Shown in pieces: positions 5,745 to 58,383 of a stretch of DNA of 64,000 nt. Source of the DNA: an uncultured delta proteobacterium (GTDB taxonomy: Bacteria > Desulfobacterota > Desulfobaccia > Desulfobaccales > 0-14-0-80-60-11). The stretch is taken from assembly GCA_963773285.1 (NCBI GenBank), contig CAVZAM010000006.1, forward strand, positions 25,786 through 89,785, given 5' to 3'. Position numbers and translations under genes: made by a program. Below the pieces are notes generated by a model, which was given only the letters and a program-made list of their open reading frames with translations, made no database searches and had not been told where the DNA came from. Position 1 is the first letter of the stretch. The number at the start of each line of letters is the position of its first letter.

Positions 5745-7637
5745 ATGCCCTCCATGGCTGTTTATCCCACAGAATTTGACCTGATTGTGGTGGGGGCCGG
5801 GCACGCCGGCTGCGAAGGGGCCCTGGCGGCCGCCCGCATGGGCCTCAAGGTCCTGCTGCTCAGCCTCAACCTGGACACGGTGGCGGCCATGGCCTGCAAC
5901 CCGGCGGTGGGGGGCCTGGCCAAGGGGCACCTGGTGAAGGAAATCGACGCCTTGGGCGGGGCCATGGGGCACGCCGCCGACCTCACCGGGGTGCAGTTCC
6001 GCACCCTGAACCTCTCCAAGGGGCCGGCCGTCCGGGGGACCTGGGTCCAGTGCGACAAGCAGGCCTACCGCCTGGCCATGAAGGCCAAGGTGGAAGGGAC
6101 CCGGAACCTCACCGTCCGGGAGGCCATGGTTGAGCGGCTCCTGATGGAGGACGGCCGGGTGACGGGCGTGTTGGACTCCCTGGGGCTGGTCACCAGGGCC
6201 CGGGCCGTGCTCATCACCACGGGGACATTCTTGAACGGCCTTATTCACATCGGCGAGGTGAAAATCCAGGCGGGGCGGGCCGGGGAGTTCGCCGCCCTGG
6301 GGCTGGCCGCCCACCTGCAGGAACTGGGCTTCAGGATGGGCCGCTTAAAGACCGGCACGCCCCCGCGTCTCAGGGCCTCGTCCATCGATTTTTCCCTTCT
6401 TACCCGCCAGGAAGGGGACCCCAGGCCCCGGCCTTTTTCCTGGCGCACGGCTGCCCTGGCCGTGGAGCAGTTGCCGTGTTTTATCAGCCACACTACCTCT
6501 GAGACCCACCGCATCGTCCGCGACAACATCGGCCTTTCCCCCCTGTACAGCGGGGTCATCACCGGGGTGAGCGCCCGCTACTGCCCGTCCCTCGAGGACA
6601 AGGTGATGCGCTTCACCGACAAGCCCAGCCACCAGGTGACCCTGGAGCGGGAAGGCCGGGACACCGAGGAGATTTACGCCAAGGGCCTGGGGAACTGCCT
6701 GCCGGTGGCGATCCAGCTGCGGCTCTTTAGATCCGTGCCGGGCCTGGAGGAAGTGGAGGTCATGCGGCCGGCCTACGCCATCGAGTACGATTTCGTCGAC
6801 CCTACCGAGCTCAAGCCCACCCTCGAGACCAAAAGAATCGCCGGCCTGTATATGGCCGGGCAGATCAACGGCACTTCGGGCTACGAGGAGGCCGCGGCCC
6901 AGGGCCTCTGGGCCGGGGTCAACGCTGCCTGCGCCGTGACCGGCCGCCCGCCCTTCCTGCCGGACCGCTCCCAGGCCTACATGGCCGTGCTGGTGGACGA
7001 TCTGGTCACCAAGGGCACCCGGGAGCCCTACCGCCTGTTCACCTCCCGGGCCGAATACCGCCTGCTCCTCCGGGAGGACAACGCCGACCTGCGCCTCACG
7101 GAATGGGGCCATGACCTTGGCCTGGTGGACCGGGAAGCGGTGGCGCGCCTCAGGGAGAAAAAGCGCCTCATGGCCGAAGAAAACGCCCGCCTGGCCACCA
7201 AAAAGGTAATTTCCACCCCCGGGGTAAATCAGGAACTGGCGGCCCGGGGCACGGCCCCCATCAGCGAACCCACGCCGCTCCTGCGCCTGGTGAAACGTCC
7301 GGAACTGGACCTCATCACCTGCCTCAGGCTGGCGGGGGAGGAGACCCCGGCCGCGCCCCCGGCGGTCCTGGAGCAGATCGAAATCGAGCACAAGTACGCC
7401 GGTTACCTCAAGCGTCAGGCGGAGATGGCCCAGAAAATGGCCCAGTGGGAAGAGAAACGTATTCCGGAGGGCTTTGATTACGACGCGGTGCCGGGGCTGA
7501 GCAACGAAATCCGGCAGAAACTCAAGGAGGTGCGGCCCCGTTCCCTGGGGCAGGCAGGCCGCATGAGCGGCGTCACCCCGGCGGCGGTGGCCCTGCTCAT
7601 GGTCTACGTGAAACGGTATTGTGGGGGAGGGGGCTAA
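5745..7637 (+). CDS. mnmG: tRNA uridine-5-carboxymethylaminomethyl(34) synthesis enzyme MnmG (GidA)
   Basis: 630-aa ORF with FAD motif [19 protein letters not shown] and conserved [16 protein letters not shown]. The last 5 codons plus the stop (CGGGG-TAA) lie inside repeat copy 2. Confidence 0.95.
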
Positions 7638-24107: not shown

Positions 24108-24139
24108 ATCCTTTGCAGGAGTTGTACCAAAATTTTTTG

Positions 24140-24159
24140 GTGCGTAAGACGCACCCTAC
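24140..24159. repeat. REP-like palindrome (GTGCGTAAGACGCACCCTAC), left member of an inverted pair
   Basis: 19/20 identical to the reverse complement of 24508-24527. Read on the minus strand it is GTAGGG + hairpin GTGCGT/ACGCAC. Confidence 0.7.
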
Positions 24160-24179
24160 ATTTCTGAGTTCCCCGAGGA

Positions 24180-24488
24180 CTATTTTTGTAGCTTTTTGAG
24201 AACTTCCGCCCTTGCAGAAGGAGAAAGTTGTTCGAAGGAATCCTCAACATTCTCTACCAATTCATCGCTCCGGTCTTTGAGATATTCGTGAAACCTTTTG
24301 ATTTGAGCCTCGGTGACTAGCTTATTTTGCAGCAGATGAGATTCCTCTTGGTCCTCCATCTCGCTAAAGAGATTAAGATTCAAAGATTTCACCTGAGCTT
24401 CGGGGGTCACTAAAAGGCCTTCGGCATCAGCTGTTTTTTCAATGAAAATAAAATATAGATTTGAGCTTTTATTTTTGCATGTCTCCAT
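24180..24488 (-). CDS. hypothetical acidic protein (102 aa)
   Basis: An internal ATG at 24488 (METCKNK...). It is AT-rich and lies entirely between the two REP-like palindromes. I recognise no family. Confidence 0.4.
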   Translation of the reverse strand: METCKNKSSNLYFIFIEKTADAEGLLVTPEAQVKSLNLNLFSEMEDQEESHLLQNKLVTEAQIKRFHEYLKDRSDELVENVEDSFEQLSPSARAEVLKKLQK

Positions 24489-24507
24489 ATCGCTCTTTCC
24501 TATATAC

Positions 24508-24527
24508 GTAGGGTGCGTTTTACGCAC
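24508..24527. repeat. REP-like palindrome (GTAGGGTGCGTTTTACGCAC), right member of the inverted pair
   Basis: A GTAG tetranucleotide followed by a 6-bp stem with a T4 loop. Confidence 0.7.
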
Positions 24528-24579
24528 TATAATCATTCACCAAAATTATCAGACAGATACTCATCAGCGCCTCCTTTCT

Positions 24580-24777
24580 CTACCCCATCACCGCATAATC
24601 CATCGCTCGAGGGTTATCCATGCGCTTGGAGGCATCCAAAATTTCCATGCCGACGATATGCCCTTCTTTATCATAGTCGATAATAACCCCCGGCTTGTCC
24701 TCATCGCTTTCCTCAATGAGGGCGTTTCTAAATATAATGCGTAGCAAGTCAATTTCAGGATCGTAAGTTATCTTCAT
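24580..24777 (-). CDS. DUF2283-domain protein
   Basis: 65-aa ORF MKITYDPEIDLLRIIF...IIDYDKEGHIVGMEILDAS, the typical DUF2283 pattern. Confidence 0.75.
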   Translation of the reverse strand: MKITYDPEIDLLRIIFRNALIEESDEDKPGVIIDYDKEGHIVGMEILDASKRMDNPRAMDYAVMG

Positions 24778-24958
24778 CGGTTGGCTTTAATAAATGATAA
24801 CCCTGCAAGCTTTGGTCGTCCCATTCAGCCCGTAGCTCTTCCTGATAAGCCAGGCCGTCTCCCTTGTTCCAGATGCCAGTGGTGTTTCCACTAACCTTTG
24901 ATAAATCCTCTTGCGTTCCCTCTTGTTCATTTGCCTGATCCTGTTGATAGTAGGCCAA
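24755..24958 (-). CDS. hypothetical small protein (possible antitoxin-like remnant)
   Basis: 67-aa ORF with a TTG start. The tail GIWNKGDGLAYQEELRAEWD resembles antitoxin C-termini I recall, but this is weak. Confidence 0.3.
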   Translation of the reverse strand: MAYYQQDQANEQEGTQEDLSKVSGNTTGIWNKGDGLAYQEELRAEWDDQSLQGYHLLKPTDEDNLRS

Positions 24959-24990
24959 AAATGGGAAGCCTGGTTAACAATAGTCCAGTT

Positions 24991-25015
24991 GGCGCAGGCT
25001 AAAGCCTGCGGCTAC
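24991..25015. repeat. second REP-like GTAG palindrome (minus-strand GTAGCCGCAGGCTTTAGCCTGCGCC)
   Basis: GTAG followed by a 6-bp stem GCAGGC/GCCTGC with a 4-nt loop. Confidence 0.55.
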
Positions 25016-25071
25016 AGGCTTAGACCTTCTCAATCTTATCTATAAATAATACATCGACAAGGTAAGTTTGT

Positions 25072-25109
25072 AAAAAAAGAAAGGCAAGCCCGGAAACCCA
25101 GGCTTGCCT
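25072..25109 (-). terminator. rho-independent terminator of the atp operon
   Basis: The minus-strand RNA has AGGCAAGCC-10 nt-GGCUUGCCU followed by UUCUUUUUUU, 30 nt after the atpC stop. Confidence 0.8.
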
Positions 25110-25139
25110 GTGATGTGTCTATGGTTATAGGGTCAGCGG

Positions 25140-29976: not shown

Positions 29977-30593
29977 TGTTTCTGTACCACCTTATGTAGG
30001 TATTCCTCCACCAACTTGGACTGGTCAGTGGAAGTGATTTCCTTTTTGATGAGCGCTTCCGCCATCTGGGTGGCCTTTTCCGCCACTTCCTGCTTGAGCT
30101 CCAGGGCGGCTTTCTTGGTCTCCTGCTCGATGCTCACCGCAGCCATTTCCTTGATGCGGGTGGCCACCATCTCGGCCTTCTCGATGATCTTTTTCTTCTC
30201 CAGCTCGCCCTCGGCAATGAACTGCTTGATGAGATCTTCCCGCTTATCGGCTACTTCGGCCAGCATTTTCCGGGCTTCCTTGAGGGCGGCCTCGGCCTCG
30301 GTCTTTTTGGTCTCCAGATCCTCCAGGGTTTCGCCGATTTCCTCAGTGCGCTTGGCGAAAAAGGCCTTGGCGGGCTTGGCGACCAGCTTCACCAGGATGG
30401 CGGCGAACACCACGAAGTTAAGGGTGCGCCACATAAAATCGTTGAGCTTTTCCGGGGTGATGGCATGGCCGTGGGCGGCGGCGCCGTGTGCGGCTTCCTC
30501 GCTGGCCCACACCAGGCTCGCGGTCAAAAGCAGCGTGCCCAGTCCCAGGAGAGTCCCCATGCACCACTGTGAGCTTTTCCATCTGTTTTTCAT
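29973..30593 (-). CDS. atpF: Fo ATP synthase subunit b
   Basis: 206-aa ORF with one TM segment followed by a long charged coiled coil. It has a 4-nt overlap with atpH. Confidence 0.85.
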   Translation of the reverse strand: MKNRWKSSQWCMGTLLGLGTLLLTASLVWASEEAAHGAAAHGHAITPEKLNDFMWRTLNFVVFAAILVKLVAKPAKAFFAKRTEEIGETLEDLETKKTEAEAALKEARKMLAEVADKREDLIKQFIAEGELEKKKIIEKAEMVATRIKEMAAVSIEQETKKAALELKQEVAEKATQMAEALIKKEITSTDQSKLVEEYLHKVVQKH

Positions 30594-31018
30594 GAGAGTT
30601 TCCTCCCCAGAATTTTGGTGGCCAGAGCCATGGCGAAATCCTGGGTTTGAGCCTGCAAGGCTTCCCGGGCTTTCCCGACATCTTTCTTAATCTTGGCTTC
30701 CACCTTGGTCCACTGGGCGTCCACTTCTTTTTTCACCTGCTCGAGCAGGGAACTCTCAGCCTGGGAACCCTCCTGACGCAGGGTTTCCCGAAGTCCCAAA
30801 CCTTCCCGCCGGGCCTGAACCAGCTCTTCGTCCACCTTTCCCAGGATACCCAGGCGGTTGTCCGCCAGCCCGGTGATGTCCTCCTCGAAGCCGGCCAACC
30901 GGGCTTTCCGTTCCAGGAGGATCTTCCTGATGGGTCTGAAGAGCACCATGTTCAAAAGGAACACCAGCACGAGAAAATTGAGAATTTGTGCAAACAATGT
31001 CCAATCGATATCAATCAT
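30590..31018 (-). CDS. Fo ATP synthase subunit b' (second b-type subunit)
   Basis: 142-aa ORF with TM segment FAQILNFLVLVFLLNMVLF followed by a coiled coil. It has a 4-nt overlap with atpF. Confidence 0.85.
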   Translation of the reverse strand: MIDIDWTLFAQILNFLVLVFLLNMVLFRPIRKILLERKARLAGFEEDITGLADNRLGILGKVDEELVQARREGLGLRETLRQEGSQAESSLLEQVKKEVDAQWTKVEAKIKKDVGKAREALQAQTQDFAMALATKILGRKLS

Positions 31019-31166
31019 CTCGGAGGGCCACCTCTTAATTTTATTTGCATATTAAAGGGTTACTTAAAAAAAGCCCAGGTGCGGAAAAAGGAGCACATGT
31101 GTATCTTTTCACGAATGCCCTTTTATCCTATTTTCAAGCACCTGTCAAAATGTTTTTTGAAAAAAT

Positions 31167-31247
31167 TTCACCCGCCCAACAGAAAGCGGCGCATGCGCAG
31201 GTTGAGCAGCAGGCCCACGGCCAGCATGGTGGTGATGAGAGAGGACC
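31167..31247 (-). repeat. orphan duplicate of the rodA 3' end (25 codons plus stop)
   Basis: The 70-nt core 31167-31236 differs at 2 positions from 31758-31827. It still encodes SSLITTMLAVGLLLNLRMRRFLLGG-stop, with synonymous differences at its upstream end. Confidence 0.85.
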
Positions 31248-31283
31248 TCGGAGTTATACTTTGGGACTCCCCTCTTATACGCG

Positions 31284-31523
31284 TTAGATTTTTTCCTTGG
31301 TCAGCCAGTCTATAAGGACATCCCGAGAGACATCCACGTCATGGAGAATTTTATTAACTAGTCCCCGGCCTAAATCTTCTCCTTTATGAAAAGGGACTGT
31401 AGCGGTGCGGCCGTCAGCATGTCGAAAAAAAATGTGGCTGCCGTGCTGTCTACTTTTCTTGAACCCTCGCGCTACCAGGAATTTTACCATCAGAATAGAG
31501 CTGATGGTAGGCAGACGGCTCAT
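31284..31523 (-). CDS. hicA: type II toxin HicA (mRNA interferase)
   Basis: 79-aa ORF with FLVARGFKKSRQHGSHIFFRHADGRTATVPFH, the HicA/YcfA signature. Confidence 0.9.
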   Translation of the reverse strand: MSRLPTISSILMVKFLVARGFKKSRQHGSHIFFRHADGRTATVPFHKGEDLGRGLVNKILHDVDVSRDVLIDWLTKEKI

Positions 31524-31732
31524 GCGTTGATCTCAATCTGTTGTACTGCCTCAAAACTCATGGGCACCGGTTCTTCTTCCAGGAGGCAAAGCTCAATGAC
31601 CTCCTTGACCCTGGGAAGTAGCTCTTCCATGGTTTTTCCCTGAGTATAACAGCTTTTCAAAGAAGGTACGGTGGCCACCAGGAGGCCATCTTCATCCCGT
31701 TCAATTAATACCGTGAAAAGATGTTTTTTCAT
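31520..31732 (-). CDS. hicB: type II antitoxin HicB (short UPF0150 type)
   Basis: 70-aa ORF with FTVLIERDEDGLLVATVPSLKSCYTQGKTMEEL. It has a 4-nt overlap with hicA. Confidence 0.88.
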   Translation of the reverse strand: MKKHLFTVLIERDEDGLLVATVPSLKSCYTQGKTMEELLPRVKEVIELCLLEEEPVPMSFEAVQQIEINA

Positions 31733-31758
31733 CGCTCGATCATCCCTTTTTTATTCCT

Positions 31759-32865
31759 TCACCCGCCCAGCAGAAAGCGGCGCATGCGCAAGTTGAGCAG
31801 CAGGCCCACGGCCAGCATGGTGGTGATCAGGGAAGAGCCGCCGTAGCTGAACAGCGGCAGGGGAATCCCCACCACGGGCATGAGCCCCGTCACCATGCAC
31901 AGATTGATGAATACCTGCCAGAACAACAGGGCGGTCACCCCCAGGGCCAGCAGCTGCCCGAAGCGCTCCTTGCAGTTCCTGGCGATGAGCAGGCCCCAGA
32001 GAGCCAGGGCCAGGTAAAGGAATACCAGGAAGGCCGAGCCCACGAAGCCCCATTCCTCGGCAAAGACCGAAAAGGCGAAGTCGGTGTGCTGCTCGGGGAG
32101 GAAATGGAGCTGGCTCTGGGTCCCCTGCAAAAAGCCCTTGCCCCAGAACTGCCCCGAACCCACGGCAATCTTGGACTGGATAATGTGGTAGCCCGCCCCC
32201 AGGGGGTCCCGCTCCGGGTCGAGAAAGATGCGCACCCGCTGGCGCTGGTATTCCTTGAGAAAAGGCCACACCACCGGGATGGAGCCCAGAAGGGCCATGA
32301 CGCCTACCAGCAGGGTGCGCCAGTGTACCCCCACCAGCAGGATCATCGACACCCCCACCATGGTCACGAGTATGGCGGAGCCCAGATCGGGCTGCCTGGC
32401 GATGAGGGCCGCGGGGATGACGATGAGCACCAGAGGGTAGATGATGTCCTTGAAATACAGGGAGCCCTCCGGGGCCAGGCGGTGGAAATGCCGGGCCAGC
32501 ACCAGGATGATGGCGATCTTGACCAGCTCCGAGGGCTGGAAGGTGAAAAAGCCCGCCCCCAGCCAGCGCTTGGAGCCGGAGACGGTCTTGCCCCCCACCA
32601 TCACCGCCAGGAGCAGGATGATGCTCAGGATGTAGAGGGGGTAGGCCAGCCTCTCCAGGTAGCGGTAGTCGATGGTGATGGTGATGAATAAAATAAAGAG
32701 GCCCACCAGGAGCCAGTAGCTCTGCTTGAGGTAAACCGCGGTGCTGCCGCCGGGGGTGTGGTTGAAGCCGGCGCTGTATAAATTGACGATGCCGATGCCG
32801 GCAATGAGGAGAATCAAAGCCAGCAAGAGCCAGTCAAAGTTTTGCACTAAACGGCGGTCAATCAT
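31759..32865 (-). CDS. rodA: peptidoglycan glycosyltransferase RodA (SEDS family)
   Basis: 368-aa polytopic ORF with the motifs QPSELVKI and GIPLPLFSYGGSS. Confidence 0.93.
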   Translation of the reverse strand: MIDRRLVQNFDWLLLALILLIAGIGIVNLYSAGFNHTPGGSTAVYLKQSYWLLVGLFILFITITIDYRYLERLAYPLYILSIILLLAVMVGGKTVSGSKRWLGAGFFTFQPSELVKIAIILVLARHFHRLAPEGSLYFKDIIYPLVLIVIPAALIARQPDLGSAILVTMVGVSMILLVGVHWRTLLVGVMALLGSIPVVWPFLKEYQRQRVRIFLDPERDPLGAGYHIIQSKIAVGSGQFWGKGFLQGTQSQLHFLPEQHTDFAFSVFAEEWGFVGSAFLVFLYLALALWGLLIARNCKERFGQLLALGVTALLFWQVFINLCMVTGLMPVVGIPLPLFSYGGSSLITTMLAVGLLLNLRMRRFLLGG

Positions 32866-32868
32866 GGG

Positions 32869-32896
32869 TGAGCAGTTAGCAGTAAGCAGTGAGCAG
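32869..32896. repeat. tandem heptamer array (TGAGCAG TTAGCAG TAAGCAG TGAGCAG)
   Basis: Four exact-length TNAGCAG units begin 4 nt upstream of the rodA ATG. An imperfectly inverted counterpart lies at 33507-33536. Confidence 0.8.
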
Positions 32897-32920
32897 AAAA
32901 GTTATATCTTGGTTCTTTTC

Positions 32921-33463
32921 TTAAATTTTCCACCAATCCTTATGAGATAGTGGATTTGATCTTTCCGGACGCCTCACAGGAGGTGTCCCCGTCTTAATTC
33001 TTAATTTTTCTAAAAACACAGAAGGTCTTAATATTGTTACTGTTGTTTTGCAGGATAAATTCTTAAGAAAATCTTTGTCGTTAGTTAACATTATATTCAT
33101 CCCGCTCAACAAAGCTTCAGCCAATAATTGACAATCATTTTCTTTTGGGTGATCAACAAAGAATTCTGATTTTAACTGATTAAGCCTGTTTTGATCAAGC
33201 GTCTATGGACGACTGCTAAAAACTACAAGTTTGCCCATGGAATGAAGAAACCGCCTCTGATCATCAGAAATTTGCTGCCATTCTCTATCGACTATAGGTA
33301 AAATATATAGACGATTTTCTCTTACATCAGTATACAATGCTGTTCTAAGAGTACAAATTTTTTCTTTTCTTAATGCTTCATGGTCATTTAATGGGTCGTA
33401 ATTTGGCAAAGTAACGTCAACAAAATACGAAAGGATATTTGAGTCTATGGCTACTTTATTCAT
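32921..33463 (-). pseudogene. PIN-domain (VapC-like) toxin gene interrupted by an in-frame TAG
   Basis: ORFs 33203..33463 and 32921..33124 are in the same frame, with the single amber codon at 33203-33205. PIN acidic motifs are IDSNIL and NDCQLLAEALLSGMNIMLTNDKDF. It is AT-rich and has no adjacent antitoxin ORF. Confidence 0.8.
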
Positions 33464-33506
33464 TGTTCAGTATTGGCAGTCTAAGAGGTTAGGCCATCGT
33501 AATGAT

Positions 33507-33536
33507 CTGCTTACTGCTCAGCTATTTTACTGCTCT
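33507..33536. repeat. inverted heptamer array (CTGCTTA CTGCTCA ... CTGCTCT)
   Basis: It carries the reverse-complement TNAGCAG motif and ends 4 nt before the recR stop. Confidence 0.7.
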
Positions 33537-33539
33537 CTA

Positions 33540-34145
33540 TCACGTTTCCACGCGGTAGCTCAGGGCCTCCCGCAGGGTGTCCCGGTCGGCGTACTTGATG
33601 TCGCCCCCCATGGGGAGGCCGTAGGCGATGCGGCTCACCTTGACCCCCAGGGGCTTCAATTCCTGGCTGAGATAGGTGGTGGTGGTCTCGCCCTCCAGGC
33701 TGGGGTTCAGGGCCAGGATCACCTCGGTAATGCCCTCCGCCGTGACGCGCTCCAGGAGTTCCTTGATGTGCAGATCATCCGGCCCCACCCCCTCCAGGGG
33801 CGAGAGCACCCCCCCCAGGACGTGGTAGCGGCCCTGGTACCAGCCCACCTTTTCGATGGCCAGCAGATCGCCGGGGTCGGCCACCACCATGAGCACGCTC
33901 CCCTGGCGGGCCGGGTTGGCGCACAGGGGGCAGAGCTCCTGGTCCGCAAACGCGAAGCAGCGCCGGCACAGGTGCACCTTTTCCTTGAGATCCGCCAACG
34001 CCTGGACCAACTCCGTCACTTCCGCGTCCGGGGCCCGGAGCAGAAACAACGCCTGCCGGGCGGCCGTCTTCTCACCCACCCCGGGCCACCGGGATAGAGC
34101 CGCCACCACCCGCTGCAACGCCTCCGGATACGCGCCTTTTGCCAT
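33540..34145 (-). CDS. recR: recombination protein RecR
   Basis: 201-aa ORF with zinc finger CRRCFAFADQELCPLC and a Toprim region. Confidence 0.95.
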   Translation of the reverse strand: MAKGAYPEALQRVVAALSRWPGVGEKTAARQALFLLRAPDAEVTELVQALADLKEKVHLCRRCFAFADQELCPLCANPARQGSVLMVVADPGDLLAIEKVGWYQGRYHVLGGVLSPLEGVGPDDLHIKELLERVTAEGITEVILALNPSLEGETTTTYLSQELKPLGVKVSRIAYGLPMGGDIKYADRDTLREALSYRVET

Positions 34146-34166: not shown

Positions 34167-34363
34167 TTGTGGGGGAGGGGGTTCCCACGGGCTGGAAGCC
34201 CGTGCTACCGGGGCCAGCGGCCCTCACGCCCCCTCCCCCAATCCCTTGAGTTGGGGAAATTTATGGTCCAGATCGAGGCCAAGCCTCGCCTGGACCGTAA
34301 ACTCAAAGGGTTGGGAGGGGTGTGGGGGAGGGCAGGGAGCCTCTGCTCCCTGGCCCTCCCCCC
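34167..34363 (+). repeat. G/C-tract modular repeat, copy 5 (variant left hairpin)
   Basis: The left unit is replaced by GGGGGAGGGGGTTCCCACGGGCtggaaGCCCGTG...; the right units match the consensus. The centre is shared with copies 6 and 12. Confidence 0.88.
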
Positions 34364-34371
34364 ATAAACTC

Positions 34372-49351: not shown

Positions 49352-49430
49352 AGTTTTCTCAGGGTAATTAGTTTACCATATATTGCACTAAACACCACGC
49401 TTTAAGGCCCCTTGGCCAATATGAAATTTA

Positions 49431-49615
49431 GGGGGGAGGGCCAGGGACCTGCGGTCCCTGCCCTCCCCCCACACCCCCTCCCAACCCTTTGAGTTTGGCT
49501 GAAATTGAGGCCTAAAGCCCACAACTTCAGCCGGATTAAACTCAACTCAGGGGATTGGGGGAGGGGGCGTGGGGGAGGGGGTAAGGGCCTGCGGTCCTTA
49601 GCCCTCTCCCCACAA
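49431..49615 (-). repeat. G/C-tract modular repeat, copy 8 (full length, inverted)
   Basis: It is the reverse complement of the consensus. The right-unit stem is changed to GGGACC/GGTCCC, a compensatory pair flip. Confidence 0.9.
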
Positions 49616-50624: not shown

Positions 50625-50648
50625 GGGAAACCTTAGAAAGTTTTTAGT

Positions 50649-50764
50649 GGGGGGAGGGCCAGGGAGCAGTGGCTCCCTGCCCTCCCCCCACGCCCCCCTC
50701 CCAACCCTTTGAGACTCAAGGGATTGGGGGAGGGGGTAAGTTCTGCCCTTAGCCTCCTCCCCGC
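50649..50764 (-). repeat. G/C-tract repeat, copy 9 (inverted, compact, no centre)
   Basis: The arms CCCAACCCTTTGAG and CTCAAGGGATTGGG are separated by a single base. The left unit is degenerate and lacks the second C-tract. Confidence 0.85.
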
Positions 50765-54779: not shown

Positions 54780-54956
54780 TTGTGGGGGAGGGGGCTAAGG
54801 GTCGAGGACCCTTACCCCCTCCCCCACGCCCCCACCCCCAATCCCTTGAGTTGGATAATCGGTTAGAGTTGGGCATATGCCTCGACTCTAACCGGCTCAA
54901 AGGGTTGGAGGGGGTGTGGGGGAGGGCAGGGAGCCACTGCTCCCGGCCCTCACCCC
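54780..54956 (+). repeat. G/C-tract modular repeat, copy 10 (full length)
   Basis: Matches the consensus. The centre hairpin is GGTTAGAGT..ACTCTAACC. Confidence 0.9.
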
Positions 54957-55024
54957 AGAATAATTTTTTGCGAAGCAAAGGATAATATTTGCAAGGTCTG
55001 AAAACAACCGAAGCGCCGCTGCTC

Positions 55025-55836: not shown

Positions 55837-56029
55837 TTGCGGGGGAGGGGGCTAAGGGTCGCAGACCCTTACCCCCTCCCCCGCACCCCCTCCCCCAATC
55901 CCTTGAGGGGGTTAATTTGGCCGGCTGGATCCGTGGCCTCAAGGCCCCGGCTTCAAGCCGACCCCTTAAAGGGTTGGGAGGGGGGCGTGGGGGGAGGGCA
56001 GGGAGCCGCTGCTCCCTGGCCCTCCCCCC
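55837..56029 (+). repeat. G/C-tract modular repeat, copy 11 (full length)
   Basis: Matches the consensus. It lies between the ABC ATPase stop and the tyrS start. Confidence 0.9.
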
Positions 56030-56059
56030 ATAGCACAATCATAATAATGGAGAACATAC

Positions 56060-58284: not shown

Positions 58285-58373
58285 GGCGGGCCTCGCCTGG
58301 ACCATAAACTCAAAGGGTGGGGAGGGGGGTGTGGGGGGAGGGCAGGGAGCCACCGCTCCCTGGCCCTCCCCCC
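58284..58373 (+). repeat. G/C-tract repeat, copy 12 (right half only)
   Basis: GCCTCGCCTGGACCATAAACTCAAAGGGTGGGGAGGGGGGTGTGGGGGGAGGGCAGGGAGCcaccGCTCCCTGGCCCTCCCCCC. Its centre fragment matches copies 5 and 6. Confidence 0.85.
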
Positions 58374-58383
58374 AAAAGACCAT

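Follow-up and report, generated by a model that had tools for sequence, protein, structure and literature searches.

Phage 21 and e14 in icd, as well as islands in tRNA and tmRNA genes, are integrative elements whose insertion replaces the 3′ end of the gene that they target; they encode a tyrosine integrase beside the att site, and the terminus that they bring has a history of its own. The present analysis concerns a different resident of a gene end, a hicB–hicA (hicBA) cassette located between the functional 3′ terminus of rodA and a second, orphan copy of it. The cassette lies in a 64,000-nt stretch of DNA, referred to here as the window (contig CAVZAM010000006.1, positions 25,786–89,785, forward strand; assembly GCA_963773285.1), from an uncultured delta proteobacterium (Desulfobacterota; Desulfobaccia; Desulfobaccales; 0-14-0-80-60-11). 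Insertion with long target duplication has been described for restriction–modification systems (Nobusato et al. 2000, Gene 259:99; Furuta et al. 2010, PMC2853133), and is recognized by an insert of less than 20 kb, a duplication of more than 30 bp, the alignment of both repeats to the one copy of an empty site, and the lack of mobility genes (PMC2853133). The repeats of these inserts have been proposed to allow their amplification and release, and the mechanism is unknown (PMC2853133). Chromosomal toxin–antitoxin pairs, in turn, are found in intercistronic hot spots, such as mazEF in relA–mazG and ccdO157 in folA–apaH (Fraikin et al. 2020, PMC7167474), and the route by which they integrate "remains unelucidated" (PMC7167474). 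In the literature on toxin–antitoxin cassettes with duplicated gene termini only one case was found as the nearest example, that of Microcystis aeruginosa PCC 7806, in which a ParE/ParD-like module has a direct repeat of 152 bp on either side (Klemencic et al. 2021, PMC7935541).

The history that probably accounts for the rodA locus is an old insertion of hicBA with a long duplication of the rodA terminus, followed by vertical inheritance, by conversion that keeps the two copies alike, and by scarless losses, with no dedicated recombinase acting today. The repeat search revealed a 79-nt direct repeat in two copies (A and B in Table 1), with 94% identity, five mismatches and a spacing of 591 nt. 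Its 70-nt core (31167–31236 versus 31758–31827) is 97.1% identical, with two mismatches, and a 51-nt core pattern occurs exactly twice in the 64-kb window and never in 100 shuffles. Residues 344–368 of RodA are found again by tblastn at 31245–31171 with 100% amino-acid identity, and each of the five nucleotides at which A departs from B is a synonymous change, TCC TCT CTC versus TCT TCC CTG among them. Of the 79 nt of the duplicated segment, 78 belong to the coding end of rodA, and the segment reaches 1 nt beyond the stop codon. The 510-bp segment between the copies (31248–31757) has a GC content of 0.47–0.50, compared to 0.62–0.65 in rodA, and contains only a hicB-like open reading frame (ORF) and a hicA ORF, so that the inserted unit of 591 bp comprises one tail, hicB, hicA and short non-coding ends. 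A previous reading of this stretch, made from the sequence alone (the sequence-only reading), had described the recurrence of the last 25 codons and the stop of rodA around a lower-GC segment with only hicB–hicA, the two differing positions of the 70-nt core and the synonymous codons at the upstream end of the orphan, and all of this is reproduced by the repeat search and the ORF content. The assembly artefact that it feared is disfavored as well. Exact-protein look-up recovered the structure from seven separate metagenome assemblies of the species (ERZ25039463, 467, 488, 490, 517, 537, 558), with both copies in every same-species assembly checked, and several diverged lineages have it too; therefore, the repeat is not an artefact of assembly.

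Relatives of the locus were gathered with a RodA query, and further filled loci came from a metagenome scan with a HicA query. L-numbers (L001, L007, L089 and so on) designate the compared loci of relatives, L146, L147, L149 and L150 being strains of the window's species. Among the relatives found with RodA, the order recR–rodA–atpF′–atpF–atpH is conserved. In 9 of the 10 closest, the rodA–atpF′ spacer measures ~150 nt, and an A/T tract and TTGACA...TAAAA form its beginning, directly behind the stop. The sequence-only reading had recommended looking for an empty site at this junction, and 11 close relatives (L001–L010 and L064) have neither hicBA nor an orphan rodA tail. Ten of them have the recR–rodA–atpF′ layout, nine of these with the ~150-bp spacer; L003 harbors ~1.5 kb of other DNA, without Pfam matches, between rodA and atpF′, and in L010 no atpF′ lies next to rodA. 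L001–L009 (except L003) and L064 have one tail, after which comes the spacer that is seen in the window. In the window, this conserved spacer adjoins the orphan copy, not the functional end of rodA. Since the spacer that follows the rodA stop in the relatives follows the orphan here, the orphan copy corresponds to the old rodA end. The empty site of L007 is 90% identical to L089 and L099 across the whole rodA and the atp side. Both copies of L089/L099 map to the single L007 tail at 6988–7101, those of L089 with 90–96% identity to it. The existence of empty relatives with one tail supports the claim that the hicAB segment was inserted at the rodA 3′ end and is bounded by the duplicated terminus. 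Relatives that lacked the cassette and still carried a duplicated tail had been named as the sign that would speak against it, but a second rodA tail is found in none of the 79 genome loci without cargo, and every hicBA at the rodA site has an orphan copy or an orphan remnant. For the species of the window itself, no empty site was found, 7 of 7 assemblies being filled. That L089 received the cassette from a diverged donor, through homologous recombination in the flanks, was considered and discarded, as the cassette flanks show no patch of extra divergence between L089 and L007.

The same module was also searched for elsewhere, as the sequence-only reading had suggested, and the layout rodA–hicB–hicA–orphan rodA tail–atpF′ is present in L085, L088, L089, L094, L099 and L132, whose RodA proteins are 68–98% identical to that of the window. 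L091 has rodA–hicB–hicA as well, with an orphan that is nearly deleted (~15 nt left). In L088, L089, L094, L099 and L132, the duplication extends from about codon 332 (G-I-P-L-P-L-F-S-Y-G-G...) to the stop, spanning 111–114 nt with 86–98% identity within each genome and ends that are sharp at either side. Similarity persists in the window and L085 only over the last 25 codons or fewer; the L085 orphan also bears a 15-nt deletion, and the L132 orphan has non-synonymous changes. On this comparison, the window orphan is a partly eroded form of the longer duplication. In the trailer behind hicA, positions 31263–31274 read GAGGGGAGTCCC, versus GTGGGGATTCCC in rodA, and may be a remnant of rodA codons 331–334, although the reading is ambiguous. 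This trailer ends with ...CTCCGAGG, the leader ahead of hicB starts with AGGAATAAAA and the spacer after the tail with AATTTTTTC. The insert measures 510 bp in the window and ~560–760 bp in the related loci. L089 and L099 are near identical (dS, that is, synonymous divergence, of 0.05), yet the L089 orphan has seven differences in its first 24 nt (L089 2174–2200 versus L099 1842–1865), and there the L099 orphan departs from its own functional tail at the first 2 nt only. Import of the L089 orphan start by recombination, and not point mutation, is what these differences point to.

The orphan copies are not independent of the gene end that they resemble. Comparing the window with L089, the orphan matches its own functional tail at 18 of 22 varying sites, and the two orphans agree with each other at 3. 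Between L085 and L089 these figures are 16 and 1, and between L089 and L132 they are 12 and 2. Counted over sites at which functional tails vary between genomes, the own tail is followed at 18 of 22, 14 of 22 and 16 of 17. In the window/L085 and L089/L099 pairs, each of which clearly shares the same insertion, the orphan follows its own tail at 3 of 5 and 2 of 4 variable sites, respectively, and the orphans agree at 2 in both. An orphan that had drifted without conversion since before the clade splits would be unrecognizable, so that this tracking of the own tail points to overwriting. Exchange is also visible within the species. At a CTG/TTG site near the stop, most strains have CTG in copy B and TTG in copy A, but the two copies agree in L146, on TTG, and in L150, on CTG. 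In L147, a site that is CGC in all other strains reads CGG in A and B alike, and the CTC in B and CTG in A of this strain are swapped with respect to the window (CTG in B, CTC in A). Conversion between copies A and B in both directions is shown by these patterns. Across all strains, the differences between A and B, about eight distinct changes, are synonymous in the rodA frame, an outcome that random substitution would give roughly once in 10^4–10^5 by a rough estimate. The simplest reading is that the orphan has been repeatedly overwritten from functional rodA tails, that is, from its own copy B and possibly from those of other strains; only synonymous differences are seen because selection on rodA filters what can be copied. 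The sequence-only reading had taken the synonymous differences as the sign of a foreign terminus brought by the cassette. However, the TCC TCT ... CTG TTG state of the window orphan is that of the functional tail of its sister L085, so the differences in the window are ordinary, and their interpretation as donor-versus-host alleles is ruled out once L085 and seven strains are compared. When a gene end and its orphan differ only at synonymous sites, a foreign terminus need not be the cause, as conversion from the selected copy gives the same picture.

The host tree, built from the rodA–atpF′ spacer and atpF′, distinguishes three hicBA clades, each with an empty sister: window and L085 with L001; L132, L091 and L094 with L002/L008; and L088, L089 and L099 with L007. 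In 9 of 10 genome pairs diverged beyond a few percent, the dS of hicB and hicA (Nei–Gojobori estimates, noisy for genes of 58–365 codons) at least equals that of rodA and atpF′. Between the window and L085, dS is 0.32 for rodA, 0.66 for hicB, 0.48 for hicA and 0.36 for atpF′; between the window and L089, it is 0.70, 1.49, saturated and 2.2, respectively. The exception is L091 versus L089, with 0.98 for hicB and 1.17 for rodA, over 58 codons. Because the cassette genes are at least as diverged as the host genes, the insertion is considered old and mostly vertical, and the best fit is a single early gain with scarless losses later on. Recent horizontal spread, hinted at by the 91% identity of HicB versus 68% for RodA, was rejected because hicB/hicA dS equals or exceeds host dS, and the conservation of HicB reflects strong purifying selection. 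Of the integrative cassette at a gene 3′ end that had been proposed from the sequence, the insertion is therefore upheld and a recent integration is not.

Regarding the cassette itself, HicA scores 58.7 bits against PF07927 (HicA_toxin), above the curated Pfam cut-off of 27, matches PDB 1whz (E 2.3e-6) and has the G-S-H motif in RQHGSHIFF. Its HicB partner reaches 25.4 bits with PF15919 (HicB_lk_antitox), just under the cut-off of 27; the structure 2yzt (TTHA1756) matches it with E 8.8e-9, and HicB 6g1c only with E 0.93. The antitoxin gene comes first and overlaps hicA by 4 nt (ATGA). The cassette is thus predicted to be a HicAB-like type II toxin–antitoxin pair. The promoter scan returned no promoter-like site ahead of hicB in the window, and only 25 nt separate the rodA stop from the hicB start, so that hicBA is probably transcribed by read-through from rodA. 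In the related loci the leader is AT-rich and of 74–197 nt; its similarity to the atp spacer is too weak to claim that it is a decayed copy of it. The HicB protein is 100% identical in 7 of 7 same-species assemblies, and hicA is frameshifted in 3 of the 7 (L146 3244–3447; L147 and L149 3226–3448, corresponding to window 31284–31523). Random sequencing error is disfavored because L147 and L149 share the frameshift positions, although L149 has other broken genes and sequencing error may partly apply there. The frameshifts probably represent a toxin-first decay. Outside rodA, the closest hicBA relatives (L086, L115 and L128) lie upstream of lemA in 3 of 3 cases, and downstream of alaS in L115; HicB identity is 83–87% in L086 and L115, and HicA identity is 76–81%. 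Hence the cassette family has been resident at more than a single conserved site. The closest non-rodA loci (L086, L115, L128, L087 and L090) showed no flanking duplication, and long flanking repeats are thus only partly true as a general trait of this hicBA family.

The features of the locus are collected in Table 1. All genes are on the minus strand, in the order recR (33540–34145), an AT-rich islet, rodA, hicB, hicA, the orphan rodA piece, a 148-nt spacer, atpF′, atpF, atpH and atpA. The spacer, of 148–153 nt and with TTGACA...TAAAA(A/G), follows a rodA stop or an orphan stop in 17 loci, and this conservation suggests that TTGACA (31143–31148) and TAAAAG (31120–31125), at 17-nt spacing, are a putative atp promoter, although the site is not flagged by the consensus promoter scan. 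Orphan and spacer were also considered as a known RNA family or strong structure, a candidate that was dropped (no Rfam match above threshold; fold z-score of only −2.3).

Table 1. Features of the rodA–hicBA–atp region and of the dispersed palindromic element, in window coordinates
Feature	Coordinates	Strand	Evidence or remark
rodA, SEDS peptidoglycan polymerase family, intact, 368 aa	31759..32865	-	Pfam FTSW_RODA_SPOVE E 5e-107; synteny recR-rodA-atpF′ in relatives
Repeat copy B, functional rodA terminus (codons 344-368, S344-G368, stop, 1 nt)	31758..31836	-	Repeat search, codon alignment; cassette adjoins stop directly
Leader, rodA stop to hicB start, 25 nt	31733..31757	-	Sequence
hicB-like antitoxin gene, 70 aa, short form lacking a DNA-binding domain	31520..31732	-	Pfam HicB_lk_antitox (just under cut-off); PDB 2yzt
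hicA toxin gene, 79 aa, G-S-H motif	31284..31523	-	Pfam HicA_toxin; PDB 1whz
Trailer, hicA stop to orphan copy	31246..31283	-	Possible decayed remnant of rodA codons ~331-343
Repeat copy A, orphan rodA terminus, at ancestral rodA-end position	31167..31245	-	Conserved spacer comes next; tblastn RodA 344-368 100%
rodA-atpF′ spacer with putative atp promoter	31019..31166	-	Conservation
atpF′ (ATP synthase b′ subunit), first atp operon gene	30590..31018	-	Pfam ATP-synt_B; synteny
~65-nt REP-like element copies	34290-34370, 49425-49500, 50643-50720, 54890-54965, 55959-56038, 58303-58382	both orientations	

Mobility genes were searched for with Pfam in 30 long ORFs of the window, roughly half of its likely genes, and no integrase, transposase or resolvase was found among these, in the cassette or in the neighboring genes (recR, rodA, atp). 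Likewise, there is no recombinase ORF in the related hicBA inserts or in the 2.6-kb cargo of locus L036 (see below), and the repeat search detected neither terminal inverted repeats nor an attC-like structure at the cassette ends. An integron gene cassette does not describe the locus, as the flanking repeat is rodA coding sequence, with no attC, and the Pfam scans show no integrase domain. Nor does a transposon, insertion sequence (IS) or miniature transposable element with inverted repeats (MITE), given the lack of terminal inverted repeats and a duplication of 79–114 nt, not below 15 bp. A site-specific integrative element would encode an integrase, and none is encoded in the 510-bp insert, the related inserts or the scanned ORFs; its att site would have a separate history, and the orphan follows the functional tail of its own genome at most varying sites.

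The proposed model starts with the insertion of a hicB–hicA cassette at the rodA 3′ end together with a duplicated terminus, from about codon 332 to the stop (111–114 nt). The upstream copy completes a functional rodA and the downstream orphan keeps the native atp-spacer junction; neither essential neighbor was damaged. The cassette would then have been inherited vertically in at least three related clades and lost without scar in sister lineages, most simply by recombination between the copies. Homologous recombination would overwrite the orphan with the functional rodA tail, through conversion from copy B and possibly exchange with other strains, and the orphan erodes from its edges or by deletion, as seen in its 5′ third in the window and in L085, L091 and L132. 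In part of the population, the toxin gene is already frameshifted. Several observations weigh against this model. The GC content at third codon positions of hicBA is 0.48–0.64 in every lineage and 0.7–0.9 in host genes, so that more GC amelioration might be expected of so old a resident, and repeated re-acquisition of hicBA from an AT-richer pool is possible. The hicA genes of L091 and L094 have a dS of 1.76, the atpF′ genes of the same pair one of 0.34, and, because of this discordant hicA, the history of the cassette is not strictly vertical. According to the host tree, a single old gain needs at least five or six scarless losses, and the dS values that support it are noisy, coming from genes of 58–365 codons. 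The boundary of the duplication is a further difficulty. It ends 0–2 nt from the stop codon, where ~97% identity drops to none, and a random staggered target duplication does not predict a boundary at a stop codon. That the duplication once extended past the stop is unlikely, because conversion would have kept that part alike too.

Other loci bear on this question of boundaries, and at two unrelated sites a repeat again coincides with an ORF end. In L002 (4830–5702), an MntA (NTP_transf_2)/HepT-like pair lies between two copies of the recR end, each made of its final 34 codons and the stop (100 nt, 88–90% identity); the copies have nine synonymous and three non-synonymous differences and start at the conserved RIAYGLP block. 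The arrangement is of the kind seen at rodA, but one gene further upstream. In L005 (5497–5889), the orphan recR tail is degenerate and begins a codon further on, behind a 7-nt tandem-repeat array, with no recognizable toxin–antitoxin genes between the recR-tail copies. The hicBA pairs of L093 (483–1138) and L138 (204–802), with HicA proteins 64% and 51% identical to that of the window, are flanked by a 60–70-nt duplication, with the orphan copy upstream, whose first bases are precisely the ATG of the gene downstream, for a FAD-binding molybdopterin-dehydrogenase subunit (Pfam FAD_binding_5), and which covers ~20 codons. L036 (6976–10225) belongs to a Geobacteraceae metagenome-assembled genome (CAIUSO010000050.1; RodA 56% identical) and has an orphan rodA tail 2.9 kb downstream of rodA (tblastn E 1e-11). 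This tail begins near codon 331/332, lacks 12 nt through a deletion and shares 78–80% identity with the functional tail. Its duplication extends ~240 nt past the stop (93–95% identity), and its cargo of ~2.6 kb contains putative hipA-like, XRE/hipB-like, DUF4160-like and DUF2442-like genes, as read from the translations. That an independent orphan with different cargo starts within six codons of the window-type start also weighs against the model above, and it hints at a site preference, or at selection for a conserved pairing segment, in a suggestive but not decisive way, the coincidence being expected by chance about 1 in 10 times for typical repeat lengths (an estimate). The flanking repeats of L114, L119, L126 and L133 were examined as target duplications and turned out to be multicopy intergenic repeats. 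In L114 (79–1737), L133 (168–1490) and L126 (2870–3848), hicBA-like pairs are found in tandem arrays of small toxin–antitoxin cassettes with recurring 60–70-nt repeats that are not gene termini; these could be integron-like cassette arrays or REP-bounded islets.

The rival given most weight, which the boundary at an ORF end and the recurrent start keep alive, is a homology-targeted cycle; it is nevertheless unlikely. A small circle carrying hicBA and a rodA terminus would enter the rodA tail in a Campbell-type manner through the homologous recombination of the host, restoring rodA and producing an orphan copy, and would leave by recombination between the copies; as the terminus begins at the most conserved RodA block, GIPLPLFSYGG, it would pair even with diverged hosts. 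The empty sites without scar and the mapping of both copies to one tail agree with it, as do the reciprocal-looking CTG/CTC swap of L147 with its two-way conversion, a repeat that ends at the stop and starts at the conserved SEDS block, the shared start of L036 with unrelated toxin–antitoxin cargo, the conserved RIAYGLP block at the start of the L002 recR tail around MntA/HepT, and scanned ORFs with no recombinase gene. But no sign of recent horizontal spread is seen, cassette dS being at least as high as host dS; all seven same-species assemblies are filled and none is empty; gene conversion alone explains the exchange patterns; and the coincidence of L036 is only moderately unlikely. That small toxin–antitoxin cassettes in these Thermodesulfobacteriota form a recombinase-free, homology-targeted class of units carrying the termini of essential genes (rodA, recR) is, to the same extent, a doubtful generalization. 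If true, it would account for codon-exact boundaries at three unrelated sites, for the shared GIPLPLFSYGG start in Geobacteraceae and for the reciprocal exchanges.

The interpretation of the sequence-only reading was that of a site-specific integrative cassette at the rodA 3′ end with a terminus of its own, the copies being attL/attR-like boundaries; the integrase would then act in trans or have been lost. Direct repeats that bound the insert, the existence of empty sites, a boundary exactly at the stop codon, the recurrent start position in L036 and the precedent of phage 21 and e14 at icd speak for it. It is nonetheless improbable, more so than the homology-targeted cycle: the cognate integrase for which it had recommended a search is not found among the scanned ORFs, the cassette, its neighbors or the L036 cargo, the ends lack inverted repeats and attC-like structures, the 80–114-nt identity segment tracks the host allele, which argues against a separate history as part of an element, and the cassette is as old as the host splits. 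Hardly credible is a tandem duplication of the rodA end that came before, with a later and fortuitous arrival of the cassette between the copies, or an assembly artefact. The orphan recR tail of L005 without recognizable toxin–antitoxin genes could be cited in its favor, although it is not specific, but the absence of a second rodA tail from all 79 cargo-free loci, the presence of an orphan or remnant beside every rodA-site hicBA, and the agreement of seven assemblies and diverged lineages on the structure contradict it. An old insertion with long target duplication is thus the reading retained here.

Other islets and repeats are found nearby. The recR–rodA spacer (32866–33539) contains an AT-rich islet (GC 0.30–0.39) with ORFs at 33203–33463 and 32921–33124, which read like the halves of a split PIN-domain toxin, without a Pfam match. 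It is flanked by inverted arrays of 7-nt repeats (32864–32882 and 33507–33525), and no second recR tail was found beside it. This spacer varies among HicB-identical strains, with the islet in the window, 112–116 nt in L147/L149 and a 365-aa ORF in L146; homologues of both islet ORFs are present in L008 (5393–5926). A second AT-rich islet (GC ~0.45) occupies the atpC–glmU spacer (24108–25139), with a DUF2283 ORF (24580–24777; Pfam E 1e-18) and small ORFs without family matches (24755–24958, 24180–24536), and no long flanking direct repeat was found around it. A 25-nt palindromic element, GTAGGGTGCGT..ACGCACC, is located there at 24135–24159 and, inverted, at 24508–24532, and similar ones are found near hicBA in L087. 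Finally, a GC-rich palindromic intergenic element of ~65 nt (AAAGGGTTGGGAGGGG..GGGGGGAGGGCAGGGAGC..GCTCCCTGGCCCTCCCCCC), similar to repetitive extragenic palindromic (REP) elements, has at least six copies in the window (Table 1), some of which read into 5′ extensions of ORF calls.

The gain and loss of chromosomal toxin–antitoxin systems is an acknowledged gap (PMC7167474), and the rodA locus preserves an insertion footprint unusually well. It displays a long duplication of an essential-gene end, clean empty sites in sisters, stages of decay and ongoing recombination within the species, and it offers a concrete, testable route for scarless loss and perhaps re-entry. By its anatomy, it corresponds to an insertion with long target duplication: one copy stands at the empty site (L089/L099 versus L007), the duplication of 79 nt (111–114 nt in related loci) and the insert of 510 bp fall within the described sizes, no mobility gene lies in or beside the insert, and the repeat is not multicopy, with two occurrences in the window; only the cargo departs from the described class, being HicB/HicA and not a restriction–modification system. 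As in the restriction–modification insertions, a small addiction-type unit with lower GC than its host and no mobility genes is bordered by direct repeats of tens to hundreds of bp, some of which overlap the 3′ end of the neighboring gene. Unlike them, the repeat here lies almost wholly in the coding end of an essential gene and the insertion is old and common to several clades; the homogenization of the repeats by recombination is not described there. With the elements of icd and tRNA genes, the locus shares the insertion in the 3′ end of a conserved gene that stays intact, the orphan terminus and the synonymous differences between copies, but it has no integrase and its orphan tracks the host allele. 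The mazEF and ccdO157 loci are also pairs between unrelated housekeeping genes, patchy among relatives and subject to toxin decay, although the texts read do not describe a duplicated gene terminus beside them (PMC7167474). The ParDE module of Microcystis resembles it as a chromosomal type II pair downstream of an unrelated gene with long direct repeats at both ends; those repeats, however, are intergenic, begin 14 bp past the upstream stop, contain an inverted repeat and are not a gene terminus, and neither an empty site nor an evolutionary analysis was reported for that case. In that sense, the pattern at rodA extends the insertion type known from restriction–modification systems to a toxin–antitoxin cargo.

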